Below, piece after piece: positions 27,838 to 59,747 of a stretch of DNA of 64,000 nucleotides; position 1 is the first letter of the stretch, and every line of letters starts with the position of its first letter. The stretch is taken from positions 32,001-96,000 of the forward strand of contig JBCCHT010000025.1 in assembly GCA_039028615.1 (NCBI GenBank), in the 5' to 3' direction. This DNA is from Myxococcota bacterium. Its GTDB lineage: Bacteria; Myxococcota_A; Polyangia; Nannocystales; Nannocystaceae. The position numbers and the translations under genes are program-made. The notes beneath the pieces are model-generated. The model was not told the DNA's origin and ran no database searches. It saw only the letters and a program-made list of their open reading frames with translations.

Positions 27838-28452
27838 TTATGCGTCCCGTTTCCGCAGCGACCGCGCCCAGTCGTCGAGGCGTCCCACCGTGGACTCCAG
27901 CTCGGCCCGATCCCGCGCCAGTCGGTCGATGGCCGCCCGCAGGTCGAGCTTGGCCTTGCGGATGCGACCCCGCGCCGTGCCCTCGGGGATGCCCAGGACC
28001 GCCCCCAGCTGCGACGCCGACAGGTCCTCCCAGTAGTAGAGTTCGAGGATCGTCTGCGACTCGACCGGAATCTCCCGCAGCCCGAGCAGCAGCAGCCGAC
28101 GCTCACGCTTGGCGTCGACGGCCGAGCCCGGGCCCACGCCCAGCGCCACCACCGAGTCGACTTCGTCGTCGATCGCCTCCCGCTTGGTGCGCTCGATGAT
28201 CCACTTGCGCAGCCGATTGCGGGCAATGGCGAACATCCAGGTGCGGAACTCGGCGTCCTCGCGAAAGCGATCGACGCCCTCCACACAGGCGGCAAAGGTC
28301 TGCTGGACGAGTTCCTCGAGCTGCTGCGGGTCGCCGACCTTGTTGAAGAAGAACCGATGCAGCGCGTCCACGTGGCGCGAGATGATCTCGCTGCCCGCAT
28401 TGCGATCACCGTTGCGCCATGCGAGCAGCAGCGCGTGCTCCGAGGACTCCAC
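27838..28452 (-). CDS. ECF RNA polymerase sigma factor
   Basis: LLLAWRNGD, RFFFNKV, LVQQTF, FRTWMFAIARN, LELYYWE, GTARGRIRKAK. Confidence 0.93.
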   Translation of the reverse strand: MESSEHALLLAWRNGDRNAGSEIISRHVDALHRFFFNKVGDPQQLEELVQQTFAACVEGVDRFREDAEFRTWMFAIARNRLRKWIIERTKREAIDDEVDSVVALGVGPGSAVDAKRERRLLLLGLREIPVESQTILELYYWEDLSASQLGAVLGIPEGTARGRIRKAKLDLRAAIDRLARDRAELESTVGRLDDWARSLRKRDA

Positions 28453-43308: not shown

Positions 43309-43431
43309 GCCCAGCGAAACACCCAGTGACTCGACGCGGGCCGCACACCGTAGGTGCCATCGGTGACGCGTTCCGCGACCCACTCTGCAAAGTTTACGCA
43401 CCCACGGGTCGCCGATGGCAGGATGGGGGCG

Positions 43432-46245
43432 ATGCCGAGGCCGCAAGGCATACGCAGCGCCCGTCGGTGGCGAGCCCTCGTGATGGCCGCCCTCGTGAGC
43501 GCGTGCGGTGAGGCTCCAGAAGCGGAGGCCACTTCCCAGCCCATTGCCACCCGCGACGTAACGCCGAAACCTACGACCGCGGAACCGGTGACGATGGGGG
43601 CCGCCTTCTCCGGCTGCGAGCGGGTTCTCGTGGGCCCGGTGTGCCAGTTTCACCCCGGCAAGCTACCGCTGCGCGTATGGCTGGACCTCGACCCGCGGAT
43701 CCCCGCCTCGGTGCACATCGATGGCCGGCGGATCGACGCCCCCTCGATCCCCGTCGAGGGTGGTCAGCGCTTCGAGATCACGCCTCCCGACGACGCCCGG
43801 CACCTGGAGTTTCGCGCCACCCTCGACGAGGGACCGGGCGTGTTCCGGCTCCGGCTGGCACTGAGCACGCCGCAGAACCAGGTGCTGACCAACCTGTGGA
43901 TCCGCAGCAACGACCCCGCGAAACGGGCCGCGGTGCGCCGCGAACTCGAGACGCTGCCCGACACCCTGAATCCCGACGACCGCGCGGAGGCCCTGACGCT
44001 GCGCGCCGCCTTGGCCCGCGACGCCGAGCTCCAGAGCAACAGCTGGTACGACGAATACGACGACGCGATCGAGGCAGCGCTGAAGGTGGGGCGGCACAGC
44101 GACGCGGCCAACCTGGCGCATCAGGGGTCGTTCTTCGCCCTGCACTTCCGCAACGACGACCAGGCCAGCGAGGCGTGGCTTCGCCGGGCCGCGGAGTATG
44201 CCCGGGACGATCCCGAGCGCCGCATGGCTCAGGCGTACCACGAGGGGTTGCTCGAGCGAGCCCGCGGCAACACCCGGGCCGCCCTTCAGGCCTTCGAACG
44301 CAACGAGATCGAGACCCGCAAGCTGGGCTTGCCCGCCCGAGAAGCCAGCGTGTTGAGCGAGCAAGCCAACCTCGCCACCCGGCTGGGCGCCCACGACCGG
44401 GCGCGCGAGCTGGCGGCGAGAGCCCGGGAGCTCGAGGACGAGCTGGAGCCCGCCACTCGGGCCCAGCTGCGCAGCAACCTGGGGTGGATGATGCTCGAAG
44501 CACGCAGCCGGGGCGTCGCGACCGAAGATCCGCTGCCGCTGCTGACGGCCGCCTACGAAGAGCTCCACCCGGAGGATCCCCTGCGGCCCGACGTGCAGCT
44601 CAACCTGGGCTACGCCGCGATCTTGCGGGGCGATGCCGACGAGGGCCAACGGTGGCTCGACATGGTCGACGCGCCCTCGCTCGATCGCGTGGATGGTCTG
44701 TGGCTTCGTCTGTTCCGCGCCCGGGTCGCCCTGCTGCTCGGCAAGGCGGGCCGAGCCCAACGCGAGCTGCAAGCCCTGCTCGACGGGATTGAGCCCCACG
44801 ACGAGCTCGAGCTGCGCCTGCTGGCGCGAGTGGGCCTGGGGGAGACCCACGAGGCCCTCGGGCGAGCCGATCGGGCGCTGGCCGACTACCGAGCGGCCCA
44901 AGCCCTGCTCGACCGGCAGCTCCCGCGCATCGCCATCAACACGGGTCGCGGGCGCTTCGCGGCGGAGCGCAACGAGAGCACGCGTCGCATGGTCGATCTG
45001 CAGCTACGCCAGGGCGACACGGCGCAGGCGCTGTGCATCGCCCGACGCTCGCGAACTCGCGTGCTCCGAGTGCTCTCCCGGCAGCTCCGCCACCGCGCCG
45101 AGGCCTCGCCCGCCCACCTGAGCGCCCTGCAGCAGTATCGACGGCGCCGCAGCGAGCTCGAGTCCCGCTTCGACGAGAGCTTCACCATGGCCACGATCGC
45201 GGGTGAGCGCGAGCGCCGAGACCTGAAGGCCGCGCTCCTCGAAAACGAGCAGGCCCTCGATCGAGTCCTCGACGCGCTCGGGGCCACCGCTCCCGAGCCG
45301 GTCGCCTGCGAAGACCTACCCGCGCCCGGACCGGGACAGCTCGACCTGCACTACATGCGCCTGGACGACGGCTGGGTGGTCTTCGCTCACGACGACCGAG
45401 AACTCGCCGTGCACCGACTGGGGCCGCTGCCCCTCGACCGTGAGCCGGGGCCGATCGATTTCGATGCCGATCGCCTCGCCGCCTTGGGACAGACGCTGCT
45501 CGGTCCCCACGCGGAGGCCTTGGCCCGAGCGACGCAGGTCCGCGTCATGGCCACGGGCGCGCTGGGTCAGGTGCCCTTCCATGCGCTCCCCGTGGCGGGT
45601 GCGGGCTCGCCTCGGCTGCTCGAGCGCGTGGCGGTCGGGTACGGCCTCGACTTGCCGGGGCCACGGACCGCTGCGGCCGGGGGCTCGACGCTCGCCGTCG
45701 TCGTGGCGCCACCGAGCAACCTCGCCCATGCCCCGGCCGAAGTCGAAGCGATCGAGGCCTCGCTCGCCGCGTCGTTCAGCACGGTGCGGCGCCTGCAAGA
45801 TGGCCACGCCACCGGGCAGCAGGTCCGAGAAGTGCTGCCCCGCGCCACGCTGCTCCACTACGTCGGTCATGCCCGCGCCGAGGGCCTCGAAGGCTGGGAC
45901 AGCGCGCTGCAGCTGGCCCGCAACACCACGCTCGGCATCGGGGACATCCTCTCCACGGACCACGCCCTCCGCACGGTGGTGCTCAACGGCTGCGAGACGG
46001 GCACCGTCGATCCGCAGACCTTGGCGGGCGGCATGAGCCTGGCCCATGCCTTCGTGCTGTCGGGGGCGAGCACGGTCATCGCCACGACCCGGACCGTGGA
46101 CGACGCGGCCGCAGCGGAGCTGATGCGTGCCTTCCATGCCGAGCTGGCCACGGGCGCCACTGCGCTGCAGGCCCTTCGACAGGCCCAACGAGCCCGTCCG
46201 GCCACCGACGAGACCATGCTGCACGCACGCGCGTGGGTGCCCTGA
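43432..46245 (+). CDS. TPR-CHAT (caspase-like) protease, predicted lipoprotein
   Basis: VSAC lipobox; TPR helices; CHAT motifs VPFHAL, LHYVGHA (His), VVLNGCETG (Cys), AFVLSGA. Confidence 0.92.
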   Translation: MPRPQGIRSARRWRALVMAALVSACGEAPEAEATSQPIATRDVTPKPTTAEPVTMGAAFSGCERVLVGPVCQFHPGKLPLRVWLDLDPRIPASVHIDGRRIDAPSIPVEGGQRFEITPPDDARHLEFRATLDEGPGVFRLRLALSTPQNQVLTNLWIRSNDPAKRAAVRRELETLPDTLNPDDRAEALTLRAALARDAELQSNSWYDEYDDAIEAALKVGRHSDAANLAHQGSFFALHFRNDDQASEAWLRRAAEYARDDPERRMAQAYHEGLLERARGNTRAALQAFERNEIETRKLGLPAREASVLSEQANLATRLGAHDRARELAARARELEDELEPATRAQLRSNLGWMMLEARSRGVATEDPLPLLTAAYEELHPEDPLRPDVQLNLGYAAILRGDADEGQRWLDMVDAPSLDRVDGLWLRLFRARVALLLGKAGRAQRELQALLDGIEPHDELELRLLARVGLGETHEALGRADRALADYRAAQALLDRQLPRIAINTGRGRFAAERNESTRRMVDLQLRQGDTAQALCIARRSRTRVLRVLSRQLRHRAEASPAHLSALQQYRRRRSELESRFDESFTMATIAGERERRDLKAALLENEQALDRVLDALGATAPEPVACEDLPAPGPGQLDLHYMRLDDGWVVFAHDDRELAVHRLGPLPLDREPGPIDFDADRLAALGQTLLGPHAEALARATQVRVMATGALGQVPFHALPVAGAGSPRLLERVAVGYGLDLPGPRTAAAGGSTLAVVVAPPSNLAHAPAEVEAIEASLAASFSTVRRLQDGHATGQQVREVLPRATLLHYVGHARAEGLEGWDSALQLARNTTLGIGDILSTDHALRTVVLNGCETGTVDPQTLAGGMSLAHAFVLSGASTVIATTRTVDDAAAAELMRAFHAELATGATALQALRQAQRARPATDETMLHARAWVP

Positions 46246-46279: not shown

Positions 46280-47635
46280 TCAGCGAACCCAGACCAGCGC
46301 GTCGCCGTCTCCGACCGCCTCGAACTCGACCGTATCGCCCGGCTCCAGCCCCACGACCAACTCGTGCCGTTGGTGCCCCTGCAGGGAGTCCAAGGCCCCT
46401 ACGCGAACGCCATTGACGAGGATCTGGACCCCTCGAACCGAGACCGCCCCGCCGACGTGCTTGACGGTCATCGAGCTGCGCCCGTCGGTCCGCACGGGCA
46501 CCCGTACCCGGGCGGGACACAGGTACTCCCGACCTCGACCGTCGCTGCGCTCGAGGCTCCAGCGATCGCCCGGCTCCTCGCCGAACGAGTAGTTCTGCAC
46601 GATCTTCGGGCCCGCGACCGGACGACTCGACAAGGTCCGCAGCTCGGACCGAATGGCCGCCAGCGCCTCCAGCACCGTGCTCCACAGCCCCTCGCCGCTC
46701 GCCTCCGCGTCGTCGACCCACCCGAACATGTGGCGGCGCTCGCCGAAGTGGAAGTCGTTGACGTAGGGCGGCACCTCGAACTCTCCGCCGGGCAGCGGCT
46801 TGCGGTCGCGAGTCCACCACGCCCGCGTGATCCAGCCGCCCGGCGACAAGATCAAGTGCACGTCGTTGCAGCCCATGGGCGCCTCGTCGGGATCGCGCTC
46901 GCTGTCGGGCATGGGCTTGCCGTCGCGGGTCCAGTACACGCGCCACACTCGGAACGAGTCACCGTCGCGCTCGAAGTCGATGCCGATGTCGTTGGCGCCC
47001 TCGGGGGCCTTGCGACGCCGCATCTCCTTGCCGTCCTTGGTGTAGACCACCTCCGCACCAGCCGCCACGAACTCGAGGTGGAGGTCGTTGGCCTCGATCG
47101 GGGGTCGCTCGGCCGGGCCATAGCGTTGGCCGTCCCGCGTCCACACCAGCTGAATGTCCTCGGGCGGCTCTTGCTTCGGCCGCCACGGGAAATTCTCGAG
47201 GAGCCCGAAGTGCACGTCGTTGGGCTTCAGCGTCTCGAAGGGAAACTTGATGTCGCCGATCGGCGTGCCGTCGCGAGTCCACCACGCCGCCGTGATGTGA
47301 CCGCCGCCCCGCGGGAGGATCAGGTGACCGTCGTCCGCGCCCTCGGGCGCGGGCTGGGCCCCTCCCTTCATGCGCTCACCGTCGCGAGTCCAGTACATCC
47401 GCCGGATCGACGGCGCCCCTGCCGAGTACAGCTCGAAGTCGAACCCGACGTCGTTGGCTCCCTCGGGCGCGGGGATGGGCTTGCCGATCGGTTTGCCGCC
47501 ACGGGTGAACTGGGCGAAAGCCCCTCCCTGGCCGCCATTGAAGCGCAGATGCAGATCGTTGGCACCTTCGGGGATCCAGTCGATCGGCCTCCCGATGGGC
47601 ATGCCGTTGCGGGTAAATCGAAGTCTGGGGGTCAT
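46280..47635 (-). CDS. orphan protein with eight [WFY]T[RK]xG...ND repeats
   Basis: AAGGA RBS; strong GC3 bias; 2x4 internal repeats. Confidence 0.85.
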   Translation of the reverse strand: MTPRLRFTRNGMPIGRPIDWIPEGANDLHLRFNGGQGGAFAQFTRGGKPIGKPIPAPEGANDVGFDFELYSAGAPSIRRMYWTRDGERMKGGAQPAPEGADDGHLILPRGGGHITAAWWTRDGTPIGDIKFPFETLKPNDVHFGLLENFPWRPKQEPPEDIQLVWTRDGQRYGPAERPPIEANDLHLEFVAAGAEVVYTKDGKEMRRRKAPEGANDIGIDFERDGDSFRVWRVYWTRDGKPMPDSERDPDEAPMGCNDVHLILSPGGWITRAWWTRDRKPLPGGEFEVPPYVNDFHFGERRHMFGWVDDAEASGEGLWSTVLEALAAIRSELRTLSSRPVAGPKIVQNYSFGEEPGDRWSLERSDGRGREYLCPARVRVPVRTDGRSSMTVKHVGGAVSVRGVQILVNGVRVGALDSLQGHQRHELVVGLEPGDTVEFEAVGDGDALVWVR

Positions 47636-47727
47636 TGCGGGCGTCCTTTTTTGTCGATGACGTGACCCATCGCCCTCGGCCGCCCACACCCGGGCGACCG
47701 AGCCCACGGGTCCGGTTGTGCGGGCCA

Positions 47728-47755
47728 TGGACGGCCACGAGCCCCCGCGTGACGG
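47728..47755 (-). promoter_or_regulatory. putative ECF promoter CCGTCAC-N15-CGTCCA (repeat-protein gene)
   Basis: Exact match to copies at 47871 and 51676. Confidence 0.8.
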
Positions 47756-47870
47756 ATCGATTTCGACCCCACCGAGGCCCACGTCGGCCCCGCCCTGCCG
47801 CCGAGGACCGACCACGGATCGAGGCCGTGGCGACCCGAAAACGGCGCTCCGCAATTTTGTTGCCGCGAAG

Positions 47871-47898
47871 CCGTCACATTCGATGACGATCGCGTCCA
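47871..47898 (+). promoter_or_regulatory. putative ECF promoter CCGTCAC-N15-CGTCCA (subtilase-sigma-anti-sigma operon)
   Basis: Ends 10 nt before ATG 47909. Confidence 0.8.
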
Positions 47899-47908
47899 GG
47901 ACTCTCCG

Positions 47909-50098
47909 ATGGACCTTCGTCTCCCGTGCGTCTTTGGCTTGGTCGGCTCGCTCGCCTTGGTGGGCTGCCTCAACTCCAATCCTTCACAAACGTCCGCGAC
48001 CGGCCCCGGCGACGACAAGGGCGACGAAGGCACCATCATCGTTCCGCCCCCGCCCCCGCCTCCGCCTCCACCTCCGCCCCCGCCGCCCGTGGTCGAACCC
48101 GCGTGCCCCGGGAATCCGAATCCGACGCGGTACATCGCGATCATGGAGGACCCCGCCGCCTGCGTCGGCACGGAGGAGTGGAGCGCCGCGCCGCTGTTCC
48201 GAGCGCCGGGAACCGGGCTCGCCGTCGGTGCGCCCGGCCCGGTCGAGGTCGAGGCCAAAGCGGCGGCCGAGGCTCAGGTCCCGGCCGAGGTCGAAGAACT
48301 GGAGGCACCGCCCTCGCCCTGGCCGGAGCCCCTGCGGAGCTTCTGCGAGTACGAGTGGCGAGGCGAGACCGAAGTCCCCGGGCCTCCCGAGGTCGATGCC
48401 ATCGAGATCGATCCCGACTGCAATCGCTTGCTGCCCCAAGCCCCCGCGCGCAACACCATCGAAGACGACCGCAAGGAGCTGCGCCGACGGCAGGCGGTCC
48501 GCACCGAACTGGAGCTCGGGTTCCCCGATCGTCGCGGCCCCTCCCCGGTCGTCGCGAACGGACCCTACGTCGCCATCGTCGATACGGCCGACACCACCGC
48601 CCCGGGTGCCCCGACGCCTCCCTATTGGTCCGCCGACCCGAACCGAGCGTCCCAGCGACATGGCCTGATGATGCAGGGCCTGGTCGATGCGGTGCGCTGC
48701 TCCGAAAGCCCCGGCGACACCTGCCGCAACCGACGGTTCACGGTGCAGGCGTTCACTCGCGGCACCATCCCCGGTCAGCTCGGCAGCCTCGGCTCGCTGG
48801 CGCAAGCGCTGAGCGTAGCGATGGTGCAGTGGCAGGCCCAGCCCGACGCCGCCAATTCCGGTCTGGTGATCAACATGAGCCTCGGCTGGGATCTGCTGCC
48901 GTCGGAGGCCCTGGACGACAACCACATGAACCTGCTGCAGAACGGGCCCGACCCGGTCCCCGTGCCCGCCCGCGCGGTGCATGCCGCGTTGGCCTGGGCC
49001 GCCTGCCGTGGTGCGCTGAGCTTTGCGTCGTCGGGCAACGATCGGGGCATTGCGTGCGAGCAGACCGGGGCGATGGGCCCCGCCGCCTGGGAACAATGGG
49101 CCGCCCCCACGGCGGCCGCCTGCACGCCGCACTTCGGGGCGCCCCCCGCCAGCGTCACCGCGGGCAACGGTGCTCGCCTCGTGGCCGCGGTCGGCGGAGT
49201 GGAGATGAACGATCAACCGCTCGCGATCACCCGCCGCGGCAGCCTGCCCACACGAGTCATGTACGCCCACGAGGCGGTCATTGCCGTCGAGGGCGGTGCG
49301 TTCTCCGAGCCCTGGACGGGGACCTCGGTGCCCACCGCCGTGGCCTCCGCCCTCGCGAGCGCCCTGCCCAACCGCGGTCCCACGCCGACCCCCGCCGAGC
49401 GCCTGCAACGCATCGACGCCAGCGGAACGGCGATCGGCAAGCAGGCCGAGCTGTACCCCGGAACCCAGAGCTCCCCGGCCAAGCGCATCGACGTCCGCCA
49501 GGCCTCGGCCTTGGTCCGCCGCTTGGTGCAGCCGCCGAGCGCCCGGCCCCCGAAGGTCGACGAGGCCTTCGCCGCGCTGGTCTCCGGGCACTTCCCCGCC
49601 CCGGCCACGATGCTCGGCGTCAACCGACCGCGGTCGGGAGGCCCCGTCTGCGAAAACGCCGACGTGGACGCCTTCGGCACCAGCCCCGCCCGGCGGCAGC
49701 CCCAAGTCACGGACCTGGCCGCCGCCACCCGGCCGCAGCCCCACGTGCCGATCTGCCCCGACTGCACCATCTTCCGCCCCACGGGCACCACGCAGTACCA
49801 AATGACGGTCGACCTCGAGCCCGAGTACGAGCAGACCCGGATCGATCGAACGACGCTCAGCTTCTTCGACGAGAGCACCAACACCTTCCTGGTCGTGGAG
49901 CTCGATGACACCATCGACCCCGACGCGCTCCAGGTCCTCTCGCTCAATCGCCCGCAGCTGCCGGGCGGGGGCTCGCTCGCCGACTGGCTCGAAAATCGCC
50001 CTGCCGTCGTCAAGGGACGCGTCTCGTTCTCGGTCGACGACGGGAGCGGCAACCCGCCACAGATGGTCAACGAAGAGATCATCATCTCGCGACGATGA
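47909..50098 (+). CDS. S8 subtilase-like serine peptidase, lipoprotein
   Basis: LVGC lipobox; VAIVDT (Asp), RHG (His), VINMSLGW, SSGND, GTSVPTAVAS (Ser). Confidence 0.85.
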   Translation: MDLRLPCVFGLVGSLALVGCLNSNPSQTSATGPGDDKGDEGTIIVPPPPPPPPPPPPPPPVVEPACPGNPNPTRYIAIMEDPAACVGTEEWSAAPLFRAPGTGLAVGAPGPVEVEAKAAAEAQVPAEVEELEAPPSPWPEPLRSFCEYEWRGETEVPGPPEVDAIEIDPDCNRLLPQAPARNTIEDDRKELRRRQAVRTELELGFPDRRGPSPVVANGPYVAIVDTADTTAPGAPTPPYWSADPNRASQRHGLMMQGLVDAVRCSESPGDTCRNRRFTVQAFTRGTIPGQLGSLGSLAQALSVAMVQWQAQPDAANSGLVINMSLGWDLLPSEALDDNHMNLLQNGPDPVPVPARAVHAALAWAACRGALSFASSGNDRGIACEQTGAMGPAAWEQWAAPTAAACTPHFGAPPASVTAGNGARLVAAVGGVEMNDQPLAITRRGSLPTRVMYAHEAVIAVEGGAFSEPWTGTSVPTAVASALASALPNRGPTPTPAERLQRIDASGTAIGKQAELYPGTQSSPAKRIDVRQASALVRRLVQPPSARPPKVDEAFAALVSGHFPAPATMLGVNRPRSGGPVCENADVDAFGTSPARRQPQVTDLAAATRPQPHVPICPDCTIFRPTGTTQYQMTVDLEPEYEQTRIDRTTLSFFDESTNTFLVVELDDTIDPDALQVLSLNRPQLPGGGSLADWLENRPAVVKGRVSFSVDDGSGNPPQMVNEEIIISRR
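48044..48088 (+). repeat. poly-proline tract (15 codons)
   Basis: CCN x15 within the subtilase N-terminus. Confidence 0.9.
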
Positions 50099-50745
50099 AC
50101 CTCGGGGCGACGGCTCTCGGACAGGAGGTCGTGATATGGTGCCGTCGCCCGAGCATGACGCCCGAGGAGATCGACAGTGCGTGTCGCGGCGATGGCGACG
50201 CCCTGACCTCCCTGGTCGAGGTTCTGCTACCGGTGATCAAGGTCGAGGTCGTGGTGGCCCTCCAGCAACGATCGGGAGCCCGCGGGCGTGACGTCCGGCA
50301 AGACGTCGACGACTTCGTGCAGGACGTGATGCTGCATCTGCTCGACAACGACGGTCGCGTCCTCCAAGACTGGGACCCCGCGCGCGGGCGCTCGCTGCCG
50401 AGCTTCGTGCGCATGGTGACCCGCCACCGCGTCGCCCGGGTCCTCGAAGGATTCCGCGGCAATCCCTGGAGCACCGATCCGGTCGAGCACGAGGACCTCG
50501 AGCAGCTCCGCGCGGACACCAGCGGCACCTTTCGCCGCCTCGCCTCCCGCGACGAGCTCGCCCATGTGCTCGAGGCCCTGTGGGCACGGCTCGACGCCCG
50601 CGGCCGCGAGCTGTTCCAGCTGCTCTTCGTCGAGCAGCGCCCCACCGCCGAGGTCTGCGAGCGCATGCAGATGACCCCCGCCGCCGTTCGGCAGTGGACG
50701 GCTCGAATGCGCCGAAACCTGCGCAAGCTGGAGGAGGCGGCATGA
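50095..50745 (+). CDS. ECF RNA polymerase sigma factor
   Basis: DVDDFVQDVMLHL...WDPARG.SLPSFV sigma2; EVCERMQMTPAAVRQWTARMR sigma4; start may be 50155. Confidence 0.88.
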   Translation: MNLGATALGQEVVIWCRRPSMTPEEIDSACRGDGDALTSLVEVLLPVIKVEVVVALQQRSGARGRDVRQDVDDFVQDVMLHLLDNDGRVLQDWDPARGRSLPSFVRMVTRHRVARVLEGFRGNPWSTDPVEHEDLEQLRADTSGTFRRLASRDELAHVLEALWARLDARGRELFQLLFVEQRPTAEVCERMQMTPAAVRQWTARMRRNLRKLEEAA

Positions 50746-51578
50746 CCGGCCCCGAGATCGACGAGCCGATGCTGGACGCGCTGGGCAAGCTCGAGCGCGA
50801 GCGCGCCGCGTCGATCCCCGCGGGGCTCGAGGACTACGTCGCGGGTCGACGCTCGGCCGAGGACGTGCTCGCCGAGGCGCCCCCCGAGGACCGAGAGCGG
50901 GTCCAAGCCATGCTCGACGCCCTCGGCCCCGCGGATCCCGAAGCGCCCCGGGCCTGGGCCACGCGGCTGACCGCTCAGCTCGAAGCTCGAGCCGCCGATC
51001 GAGCGGAGCCCGAAGCCGAACCCCCCATCGACCTGGCCGAACGCCGTCGCTCGCGGGTCGTGGTGTGGACGGTGGCGGCCACTGCCGTGGCCGCGGCCGC
51101 TGTGGCCGTGCTGACCCTGATGCCCCGGGGTCAGCCCGCACCCGAACCCGACGGAGATCCCCCTGCGGTCGGCACCTCCTTGCCCTCGTTCACGCTGACC
51201 GTGCGCGACTCTTCCGTGCAGACGATCCGCGGCGAGCCCGACCTGAGCAAACCCGCCCGCTACCTGCCGACCTCGCAGATCCACTGGGTGCTCAGCCCGC
51301 TACGCCCCCAGGACGGGCCGCTCGGCGTGCGCGTGCTGGCGCAGGACGACCAGGGCGCTCGACGCTTGCTCACCCCGGCCGAGCCGCGCCGACTCGACAA
51401 CGGGGCGATCGAGATCGAGGGTCGCTTGGCCCAGCAGCTCGAGCTTCCCGCCGGCCACTGGACGCTGCGGTTCGTCGTGGGTGAGCAAGCCTCGCTGCCG
51501 AGCGATCCGGCCGCCGTCGATCGGGGTGGCCCGTGGGTCGTCGCCGAGCCGGCCTACGTGGTGCACGTGACCGACTGA
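50742..51578 (+). CDS. putative membrane anti-sigma factor
   Basis: GGAGG RBS, ATGA overlap with sigma; ~100 aa cytoplasmic part, single TM, beta-rich C-terminal domain. Confidence 0.78.
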   Translation: MTGPEIDEPMLDALGKLERERAASIPAGLEDYVAGRRSAEDVLAEAPPEDRERVQAMLDALGPADPEAPRAWATRLTAQLEARAADRAEPEAEPPIDLAERRRSRVVVWTVAATAVAAAAVAVLTLMPRGQPAPEPDGDPPAVGTSLPSFTLTVRDSSVQTIRGEPDLSKPARYLPTSQIHWVLSPLRPQDGPLGVRVLAQDDQGARRLLTPAEPRRLDNGAIEIEGRLAQQLELPAGHWTLRFVVGEQASLPSDPAAVDRGGPWVVAEPAYVVHVTD

Positions 51579-51675
51579 TCGGCACCGCCCACGCGGCGCC
51601 ACGAAGGAGCGATCCAGCCCGGCTCTTCGCAGGTCGGTGGGTCGCTCGTTTTTTTCACCCTCCGCGGTCACGACC

Positions 51676-51703
51676 CCGTCACGCCAGGGCCTGTCGCCGT
51701 CCA
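51676..51703 (+). promoter_or_regulatory. putative ECF promoter CCGTCAC-N15-CGTCCA
   Basis: Third exact copy, upstream of 51829. Confidence 0.8.
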
Positions 51704-51828: not shown

Positions 51829-52980
51829 ATGGCGAAAGGCCGCACCTGGTGCATCGACTTTCAAACCGCCGCGACCAAGGCGGGCGACGTGAGCGTGAAG
51901 TATCGCGTCAAGCTCCCCAACGGCATGATCCAAGAGCTCAACGGTAGCTGGCAGGGCTACCCGATCGGCATGACCCCCGACGCGAAGGCGACCCGTTTTT
52001 TCAGGCGCCTGTCCACCGATCCCAACATGAGCTCGCTGGTCAACGTGTCCCGGGCCGGCAATACCGTCTGCTTTCAGCTCAAGGACGGCGCCCCCTACGA
52101 CGACATCGAGGGCATCGAGGTCGGCGACGAGACGGGACAGATCATCCACACCTACGACGATCCGCCGCCCGCCGACACCTCGCCGCTCGGGCCCCTCGAC
52201 ACGGTGCGGCTCGTGCTGTCCCCCAACGGGCGTCGCTCCGCCGAGGGCGGCAACGTGTGGCTGGGCATCGGCGTCACCGCCCCGCTCGTCTGCGTGCCCA
52301 CCCGACCCGAGGGCGGACGGCTCGACGTGGCCGCCGTGATCGAAGCGATCGTCAGAGCGTTCAACGAGGCGTACGCGGAGCTCGGCTACGAAGCCGCCCC
52401 CGGCAACGACGGCGAGGTCATCATCCCCGAGGTCCCCTGCAAGCTCGGCGTCCGCGGAGGGACCGACGACCCCGACCTGAGCTCCTCGCTCGGGCTGGTC
52501 AACCCGGCGGCGGGCGGCTTCGAACGGCCCTTCTCCAAGGCCGACGCGCTTCGGGCCGCCTTGGAGGTCATCGACGCCCGACTGCGCCGCACCTTCCCTC
52601 ATACCGCGGCCGGGGCCGGCATGGTGACCGGAGAGATCGCCCTGCAGGTGGTCGGCGGGACCGTGGCCGCGTGCCCCAACCCTTACGACGACGTCATCGC
52701 GGAACTCGAGGGCATCAAGGGCACCCTCGAGCGCCTGAAGAAGGGGCGCACCGACGCCCAGAAGAAGGCGCTCGAAGAGGCCCGCACCAAGATCCAAGAG
52801 GCGATCGACGGCCTCGAGAAGATGCGCGACTCCGACCCCAACGCGCCGAGCGAGGGTGACATCCAAAAGGCCCTCCGCGACGCGGCCGACAAGATCGACG
52901 AGGCCAACCCCAACCGCCGCAACGGCTCGCTGCGTCGCCAGGCCGACGCCCTGAGGGACATCGAGCGCAACCTGTTCTGA
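51829..52980 (+). CDS. hypothetical protein (beta-rich N-terminus, coiled-coil C-terminus)
   Basis: A-rich leader with GAGAG; strong GC3 bias; no signal peptide. Confidence 0.85.
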   Translation: MAKGRTWCIDFQTAATKAGDVSVKYRVKLPNGMIQELNGSWQGYPIGMTPDAKATRFFRRLSTDPNMSSLVNVSRAGNTVCFQLKDGAPYDDIEGIEVGDETGQIIHTYDDPPPADTSPLGPLDTVRLVLSPNGRRSAEGGNVWLGIGVTAPLVCVPTRPEGGRLDVAAVIEAIVRAFNEAYAELGYEAAPGNDGEVIIPEVPCKLGVRGGTDDPDLSSSLGLVNPAAGGFERPFSKADALRAALEVIDARLRRTFPHTAAGAGMVTGEIALQVVGGTVAACPNPYDDVIAELEGIKGTLERLKKGRTDAQKKALEEARTKIQEAIDGLEKMRDSDPNAPSEGDIQKALRDAADKIDEANPNRRNGSLRRQADALRDIERNLF

Positions 52981-53071: not shown

Positions 53072-53198
53072 GGTGAAGAAAAAATTCACACCGATCGAGT
53101 CGGTCGTGAATAGGAATGCGATCGGCGGGGCACTCCCTAACGTCGCCTCGCGTCGCGCGTCTCGTGGAGCCGTGGCCGCAGGTGCGGGAGTCAGGCCC

Positions 53199-58804: not shown

Positions 58805-59117
58805 GGCCAAAAATCCCCCTAGACCATCAGTGTAACGGCGACACCGATTGACTGAGCGATTTCACGACTTTTCGCCAATTGGGCACCTGGTCCTTTTGGG
58901 CAATTCGATCGCCATGGCACTTCACCGCGAACCGAATGCTCGATTGGGTAACAAAGAGGGAGTCAAAGCTCCGCGGTGACGCACTCACCCTTGGGCACCC
59001 GAGGATGCCCGGGACTGACGAATGCACAACCAGACCACGCTGCAAGCCTCCATCGTCTCCGTTCACTCGGGAAGCCCGCCTGCACCGTGGCGCACCGCTC
59101 CCCGTATACTCGTCGCC

Positions 59118-59747
59118 ATGGGCGATGGTGAGTTGCTGCTGGCATGGCGCGACGGCGATCGCGCGGCCGGGGAAGAACTGTTCGAACGCCACTACCCCAC
59201 GGTGGAGCGGTTCTTTCGCAACAAGGTCTCGGAGCCCGACGAGCTCATTCAGCGGACCTTCCTCGCCTGTACCGAATCGGCGGCCCGGTTCCGTGGGGAC
59301 TCCAAGTTCCGCACCTTCTTGCTGGGCATCGCGTTCAACGTCCTGCGTACCTTCTATCGACAACTGCAGCGAGACCGAGGCCTGGACTCCATCCACGAGA
59401 GTTCCGTGGCCGATCTGGGGCAGACCCCGAGCCGGGTCGTGTGCGCCCGCGAAGAGGAAGAGCTGCTGCTCGCCGCCCTGCGACTGCTGCCGTGTGAGCT
59501 CCAGGTGCTGATCGAGCTTCGCTACTGGGAGAACCTCAAGCACGACGAGCTCGCGGAGATCCTCGAGCACCCGCGAAGTACCATCAACTCCAAGCTCCGC
59601 CGCGCTCGCAAGCTCCTCGACGAGGGCATGCGGACGCTGGCCCGAACCCCGCAGGTCTTCGACAGCACGGTGGGCAACCTCCAAGAGTGGGTCGAGCAAC
59701 AGCGGCGCCGGGGACCCCTCGGGCCCGGCAGCACACAGGAGTCCTAG
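59118..59747 (+). CDS. ECF RNA polymerase sigma factor
   Basis: LLLAWRDGD, RFFRNKV, LIQRTF, FRTFLLGIA, IELRYWE, STINSKLRRAR. Confidence 0.93.
   Translation: MGDGELLLAWRDGDRAAGEELFERHYPTVERFFRNKVSEPDELIQRTFLACTESAARFRGDSKFRTFLLGIAFNVLRTFYRQLQRDRGLDSIHESSVADLGQTPSRVVCAREEEELLLAALRLLPCELQVLIELRYWENLKHDELAEILEHPRSTINSKLRRARKLLDEGMRTLARTPQVFDSTVGNLQEWVEQQRRRGPLGPGSTQES

Follow-up and report, generated by a model that had tools for sequence, protein, structure and literature searches.

Three motif copies surround the gene of an ECF sigma factor

We analysed a stretch of 64,000 nucleotides (nt) from a Myxococcota bacterium of the family Nannocystaceae (GenBank assembly GCA_039028615.1, contig JBCCHT010000025.1, positions 32,001 to 96,000; hereafter the window), in which three exact copies of the bipartite motif CCGTCAC-N15-CGTCCA lie around a gene for a sigma factor of the extracytoplasmic function (ECF) type (50095/50155-50745). 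On the sequence evidence set out below, these copies are very probably the promoter read by the adjacent sigma factor. The promoter is likely to be private to it, because the copies adjoin its gene and because the motifs of related clusters change together with their own sigma factors. The best overall explanation, which we hold to be probable, is that the sigma factor reads these promoters, which belong to its own operon and to two flanking orphan genes, after a predicted proteolytic release from its membrane anti-sigma factor.

47728..47755, minus strand: predicted ECF promoter copy 1 (-35 CCGTCAC, -10 CGTCCA), for a repeat-protein gene; predicted start at about 47720-47721
47871..47898, plus strand: predicted ECF promoter copy 2, for the subtilase-sigma-anti-sigma operon, putatively autoregulatory; predicted start at about 47905-47906
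51676..51703, plus strand: copy 3 of the predicted ECF promoter, for the gene at 51829; 20 nt past a terminator-like hairpin

An earlier note on this DNA had reported the three copies at these coordinates as intergenic, correctly oriented and identical at 13 of 13 bases with unrelated spacers, and each of these statements is borne out. The motif has exactly three matches in the window, compared with an average of 0.01 in 100 dinucleotide shuffles, none of which contained three. The copies stand 93, 10 and 125 nt before gene starts (ATG 47635 on the minus strand, 47909 and 51829), on the sense strand in each case. Their spacers and flanks show no resemblance to one another, and a further shared G, two positions past the final A, raises the common bases to 14; the same G is present in 48 of 54 sites of the family described below. 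The motif thus has the form expected of an ECF promoter, being bipartite with a fixed spacing, intergenic, oriented before genes and beside an ECF gene, and copy 2 precedes the sigma factor's own operon. Co-transcription of the subtilase, sigma and anti-sigma genes is suggested by their overlapping stop and start codons. The start sites were placed by ShbA/RpoE numbering, and if they hold, the mRNA from copy 2 would be nearly leaderless. The note had started the sigma gene at 50095; the gene stands, but its start codon may be 50155.

A predicted family promoter, with the motif as one of its alleles

De novo motif discovery by expectation maximisation in 59 regions upstream of homologous subtilase domains, with the window excluded, recovered cgCGTCA[G/T]-N15-xGxxAAxG in 91% of the regions; we read the runner-up motifs as stretches of the adjacent CHAT gene's coding sequence. 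When the window-free matrix was applied to the 750 nt upstream of the window's subtilase domain, the best match was copy 2, in the same register. The alleles track sigma clades (GTCAG/TGTAGA, GTTGG/TGGRTA, GTCAT/CGACAA and GTCAG/CGCGAA), and the window motif is, by its sequence, one allele of this putative family promoter. The distance from the end of a family site to the first start codon in frame is 7-13 nt for 22 of 53 sites, with a mode of 9-10 nt.

To count extra copies, we took further occurrences of a locus's own site that were intergenic and on the sense strand, again with the window excluded and with eight other spacings as control. Allowing at most one mismatch, there were 14 at N15 versus 0-1 at the other spacings, distributed over 10 of 52 loci; allowing at most two, there were 34 versus 3-7, in 23 of 52 loci. 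Matches per query were 0.269 for a locus's own site, 0.126 for sites of the same helix-residue class and 0.006 for sites of another class. The extra copies precede sigma genes, anti-sigma genes and genes for small exported proteins. The local mini-regulon thus appears to be a family trait, although kin among the loci are not independent. A pooled-matrix scan upstream of sigma genes passed 7 of 95, mostly noise, against a null contaminated by divergent promoters.

The paralogue-specific sites of the source genome are local and differ from one another. The site of the cassette on contig C29, GTTGG-N15-TGGATA, also has remote copies at C10:92027 (no mismatch) and C21:74893 (one mismatch), before predicted lipoprotein genes.

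The last -35 base pairs with a recognition-helix residue

For the comparison of sites with sigma factors we used 54 of 60 rows, having dropped four that scored below 9, one second subtilase fragment below 9 and one two-sigma locus. The last -35 base pairs with the residue at one position of the recognition helix as Asp:G (19 of 19), Tyr:G (9 of 9), Asn:T (21 of 23) and, once each, Ser:T, gap:G and Arg:C. Asp, Asn or Tyr occupies this position in 88 of 95 family sigma open reading frames. The window's sigma factor has the only Arg among the 95 and is nested in an Asp/G clade; the Arg:C row is the window. In published mutagenesis, Arg171 prefers C (0.88), Tyr prefers G (0.86) and Asp prefers G (0.44), according to the values in Dataset S3 (Todor et al., PMC7776599), and the Arg/C pairing of the window therefore agrees with this code. 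Together, the footprinting, the spacing-specific extra copies and the residue-base match support the earlier note's proposal that the motif is the promoter of the adjacent sigma factor and mediates its autoregulation. The terminator-like hairpin ahead of copy 3 and the like geometry of the DdvS promoter, both described below, also speak for the explanation given above.

Several observations weigh against this reading. Scored with the family matrix, the three copies do not reach the best 12 matches per strand in the window. The coincidence of Arg and C happened once and is confounded by kinship; by corrected mutual information the pair is not in the top 15, and contacts are not separable from ancestry, which we attribute to confounding by clades. 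The helix position is presumably that of RpoE Arg171, which we take from its place in the helix and from the ShbA alignment, not from an alignment to RpoE. The region-2.4 helix of the window's sigma factor is identical to that of the paralogue on contig C11, whose -10 is TGTAGA, so the difference in -10 is not accounted for. The only Lys-bearing sigma factor (locus L039) has GTCAC upstream at noise level (3.7), and the GTCAC matches at two Tyr-bearing loci are likewise at noise level. Sigma70-ECF matches in the genome number at least 151, and its genes were called with our own simple, home-made dicodon-model caller. Finally, Asn:T in the family disagrees with the published Asn mutant, which prefers G (0.69; T 0.12) in the same source (PMC7776599).

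Among the dropped rows, the noise-level best match of L046 (Asp) had a C, and re-inspection gave a GTGAG site. We also searched 401 genomes with degenerate codons for more sigma factors that carry Arg; the 40 loci checked held no sigma, and 17 more loci had no Arg or Lys among the sigmas called. Two Arg-bearing proteins, P0035 and P0064, are known from protein sequence alone, without DNA context.

Occurrence of the motif across the genome

Across the source genome (12.27 Mb, 68% G+C), exact 13/13 copies number 5 at N15 versus 0-3 at 11 other spacings. The two outside the window are thus at about chance level, as the other spacings show; the one on contig C21 is not intergenic by our gene calls, and for the one on C83 no gene in the sense direction was called within 700 nt. 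The C83 copy and a site on C8 with no such gene nearby were not counted as targets. The looser GTCAC-N15-CGTC, with 363 matches, is not enriched relative to spacings 12, 18 and 21 (358, 379 and 370).

In promoter position, the 12-base form CGTCAC-N15-CGTCCA has 4 exact sites, where other spacings give 0-1; once a mismatch is allowed, there is no enrichment at N15 (9 versus 3-12). The fourth exact site (C86:9385-9411, plus strand) lies 61 nt before the gene of a 425-residue predicted exported protein with a signal-peptide-like start and may, on its sequence, be a remote regulon member.

The note also listed a weaker TCAC-N15-CGT before a CAP gene. This site is present at 53086-53107, but its score is 6.5, where the three copies reach 8.2-10.0, and it lacks the -35 G that has a frequency of 0.99 in the family matrix. 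It is enclosed by a palindrome (53084-53111; equally good folding in 0 of 200 shuffles) upstream of a CAP-domain lipoprotein gene (ATG probably 53199). The palindrome may serve as an operator or as a minus-strand terminator, and a simple terminator scan lists it as the latter. Membership of the regulon is improbable, and we did not count the site, because of the missing near-invariant G and the palindromic setting.

Two intergenic TGTCACAGAT...ACGTC sites (C18:201567 and C64:9386; N15 and N16) lie near other ECF genes and possibly represent the motif of another sigma factor. The other two ECF genes of the window (27838-28452 and 59022-59747) adjoin Ser/Thr kinase-TPR genes.

The sigma factor belongs to a four-gene cassette

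The genes of the locus run from left to right as a TPR-CHAT gene, the repeat-protein gene (minus strand), divergent copies 1 and 2, the subtilase, sigma and membrane-protein genes, a hairpin, copy 3 and an orphan gene. The earlier note overlooked the TPR-CHAT gene, which travels with the sigma family.

43423..46245, plus strand: TPR-CHAT (caspase-like) predicted lipoprotein, 940 residues; Pfam CHAT E 1e-30; Cys28 in a lipobox-like setting; dyad of His816 and Cys857; position of the start codon uncertain
46280..47635, minus strand: orphan repeat protein, 451 residues, eight repeats of about 35 residues of the WTRDG...ANDLH type; no signal peptide; predicted target
47909..50098, plus strand: subtilase (S8)-like predicted lipoprotein, 729 residues; D225/H251/N377/S473 intact; predicted target
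50095..50745, plus strand: ECF sigma factor, 216 residues from 50095 or 196 from 50155; TIGR02937 above cut-off
50742..51578, plus strand: anti-sigma-like one-pass membrane protein, 278 residues; transmembrane segment at about 106-124; outer domain of about 150 residues
51607..51655, plus strand: terminator-like hairpin followed by T7, after the anti-sigma gene; z -2.45; 5 of 200 shuffles as stable; not on the list of the simple terminator scan
51829..52980, plus strand: orphan protein, 383 residues, without a signal peptide; fold predicted as two beta domains and a four-helix bundle (predicted local distance difference test, pLDDT, 68); predicted target

The cassette comprises the ECF sigma factor, the one-pass anti-sigma-like protein, the TPR-CHAT lipoprotein and the subtilase lipoprotein. 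The source genome has 8 sigma-profile matches at E<=1e-30 and nine loci with both sigma and CHAT; within the order, 56 of 73 genomes have the sigma, as do 16 of 151 sampled from the phylum, and named homologs are from Nannocystaceae/Myxococcota. With profiles built from the source genome's paralogues, 94 sigma loci (including nine from the source genome) contained the anti-sigma-like gene in 90 cases, CHAT in 78, subtilase in 60 and all of them in 58; the 68 loci of at least 15 kb gave 65, 60, 48 and 47. Both proteases are present in 9 of 20 loci from other families, of which three had no sigma called and so show nothing. A metagenome scan with the single sigma returned only distant, unrelated ECFs and was not used.

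Five loci (L106, L108, L116, L119 and L165) have a family sigma without CHAT or subtilase in the stretch examined, and may be orphaned or rewired cassettes. At L038 the sigma match is only N-terminal and CHAT and subtilase are in pieces, possibly from a frameshifted assembly or a decayed cassette.

The predicted active sites are conserved. CHAT residues H812, H816 and C857 are invariant in 21 of 21 aligned sequences (a subset of 59 long homologs), so the protein has both the domain and the His-Cys dyad of a predicted CHAT protease. The Asp-His-Asn-Ser set of the subtilase is invariant in 25 of 25 (a subset of 47 long homologs); Pfam S8 matched 24 of 25 members and not the window's own copy, and the subtilase profile matches mycosins/subtilisins (best E 7.5e-11). 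The window's protein thus has the triad and oxyanion Asn, with the S8 assignment coming through family members. The anti-sigma-like protein has no Cys or His in its first 105 residues, hence no zinc site there; its look-alikes include Acidobacteriota clusters, and also clusters of which a part has zf-HC2 (18%) or DUF4384 (33%), which we treat as a lead only.

Proposed mechanism and its alternatives

Based upon these features, we propose that region 4 of the sigma factor would read GTCAC, with Arg reading the final C, and that region 2 would open CGTCCA. The 50742 protein would hold the sigma factor at the membrane. The TPR-CHAT lipoprotein would sense an outside signal and make the first cut, in the outer domain of the anti-sigma factor, and RseP-type intramembrane cleavage, as for DdvA, would follow. 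The freed sigma factor would then transcribe the subtilase-sigma-anti-sigma operon, with autoregulation through copy 2, and the two orphan genes; the subtilase and the cargo proteins would be the outputs. TPR-CHAT is placed at the input because its gene has no promoter copy here (the motif scan found none upstream of it) and because it is linked more tightly to the sigma than the subtilase is. Since paralogous cassettes use different letters, each would be insulated from the others. That CHAT initiates the release is, in our judgement, evenly balanced.

A different trigger is possible with the same promoter and sigma factor, and is compatible with the promoter claim: the cut in the anti-sigma factor would be made by the subtilase, in a positive feedback, or by a housekeeping protease, with TPR-CHAT as a sensor, scaffold or cargo processor. 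The intact triad of the subtilase and its predicted location in the same compartment speak for this, as does the description of the DdvA CHAT site as incomplete, with self-cleavage given there as only a possibility (PMC11506125). However, the linkage of the subtilase is looser than that of CHAT (48 versus 60 of 68 loci), in 54 of 60 rows the promoter stands ahead of it, as expected of an output, and the CHAT protein Csx29 is described as cleaving an anti-sigma factor in trans (PMC10028731). We therefore regard another trigger as rather unlikely.

It is improbable that the sites belong to another sigma factor, such as an ECF41-like gene on C10 or the C11 paralogue, which is 67% identical. ECF41 reads the similar TGTCACA-n16-CGTC (PMC3426412), and the genome has an ECF41-like gene, below cut-off; yet the published ECF41 spacing is 2 bp longer with a tolerance of +/-1 (PMC3426412), and no GTCAC-type site occurs in the 3.5 kb around that gene. 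As to the paralogue, a TGTCAC-N16-CGTC match follows the C11 cassette, but C11's own subtilase site is GTCAG-N15-TGTAGA, and the family footprint ties the site to the window's type of cassette. That match (C11:252009-252034, minus strand) comes right after the cassette, 4 nt before a gene, and could reflect cross-talk or chance.

That the motif is the operator of a dimeric transcription factor is very improbable. CGTCA and CGTCC do form near-direct repeats 21-22 bp apart, but the halves diverge independently in homologous loci (GTCAG/TGTAGA, GTTGG/TGGATA), a strict orientation is kept, and the 22 of 53 sites lie just before start codons. Chance or the remnant of a local duplication is the least credible reading, and is largely refuted by the footprinting and the extra-copy counts: although the GC-rich genome yields about one exact 13-mer per spacing, here three lie within 4 kb, all intergenic and sense, with unrelated flanks and spacers, and the family conserves the site.

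Comparison with known systems

The cassette would work like DdvS/DdvA of Myxococcus xanthus and like ECF54, and is a member of neither, as far as the published descriptions allow the comparison. DdvS/DdvA likewise has a myxobacterial ECF with few local promoters, autoregulation and a one-pass anti-sigma factor, together with a periplasmic TPR-CHAT and a neighbouring peptidase gene (PMC6061681, PMC11506125). The geometry of the DdvS promoter is the same (GTAA-n16-CGT versus GTCA-n16-CGT here), with one -35 base different (PMC6061681). Unlike here, where CHAT is a separate predicted lipoprotein and the 278-residue anti-sigma-like protein is zinc-free, DdvA fuses a CHCC zinc domain to TPR-CHAT, and is called the only characterised anti-sigma factor with TPR-CHAT (PMC11506125). 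The second protease here is an S8 subtilase, and the cassette has multiplied with distinct promoters. The DdvS/DdvA regulon is described as one of defence genes; we saw no CBASS or CRISPR targets in the locus, whose predicted targets are orphans.

ECF54 also sits beside a subtilase and TPR-CHAT, with proteolytic control proposed (PMC7826278, PMC8999054), and its predicted -35, GTATCAG, shares TCAG with the commonest family allele (PMC7826278). It is described as 100% actinobacterial, without a putative anti-sigma factor and with a carboxypeptidase-regulatory-like gene at +1. Its promoter (GTATCAG/CTCC) does not match CCGTCAC/CGTCCA, and the family's CGTCAG is partly similar. We set ECF54 apart by description (taxonomy, anti-sigma factor and promoter), not by sequence comparison; plasmid searches found no ECF54 cassette.

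In the type III-E Csx29-Csx30-CASP-sigma system a separate TPR-CHAT protease also cuts an anti-sigma factor in trans, with three sigma sites in the locus; that system is cytoplasmic, RNA-triggered and CRISPR-linked (PMC10028731), while ours is predicted to be extracytoplasmic and has no Cas7-11. ECF41 shares the GTCAC and CGTC cores and a tiny local regulon, but has, in addition to its longer spacer, a C-terminal extension and no reported anti-sigma factor (PMC3426412); the 196-216-residue sigma here has no extension. The closest solved structure to the sigma factor is ShbA/ECF40 (PDB 9isn, E 7e-8), which reads CGTAAC-N16-CGATGA with Arg at the same helix position and C at the same base; as described, it is actinobacterial, has no anti-sigma factor in context and transcribes hrdB (PMC12019637).

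By analogy, the locus looks like a protease-triggered signalling module that resembles a known anti-phage switch in split form. There is nothing unusual in an autoregulated ECF promoter as such; less ordinary is the widespread myxobacterial cassette that it exposes, with sensor-protease and anti-sigma factor as separate genes. No description of the cassette or its promoter was found among the top-listed literature matches, although published ECF classification tables might still place these sigmas in a group. The cassette opens the DdvA question, whether a periplasmic CHAT cuts an anti-sigma factor, to testing, as it offers two small proteins together with a reporter promoter that is ready to use. 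It also hints at the way in which ECF54 may operate. Its clade-specific sites are natural candidate orthogonal sigma-promoter pairs and test the published ECF recognition code, including the one disagreement (Asn:T). More tentatively, we envisage a split-DdvA family in which a free TPR-caspase lipoprotein, acting in trans and outside the cell membrane, would cut a small zinc-free anti-sigma factor and so turn on a subtilase and cargo genes that change fast. The many Nannocystaceae paralogues would be orthogonal by a one-residue/one-base code, and this locus would preserve a change of specificity that occurred in nature (Asp to Arg, G to C) and rewired two orphans, possibly in a conflict or anti-phage response.

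The predicted orphan targets

Neither orphan gave a convincing match in Pfam, NCBIfam, PHROGs or PADLOC, and PADLOC matched none of 8 locus proteins. The repeat protein has one homolog among 8000 candidates scored and no usable match in the Atlas. Its gene sits between CHAT and subtilase, which adjoin in the C11 paralogue and in close relatives; this suggests, from gene order, a recent cargo capture.

In the 51829 protein, no sequence similarity links one beta domain to the other. Residues 4-110 of its model align to phage sheath/tail beta domains (Z up to 10.7, root mean square deviation 2.3, 91 aligned), a likeness of a predicted model that shows no function; the N-terminal domain also resembles flagellin beta domains. 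Its five homologs have the first ~255 residues in common and differ in their C-termini. Some carry ANDLH...WTxDG-like stretches like the units of the repeat protein, whose repeat profile weakly matches one of them (E 0.003).

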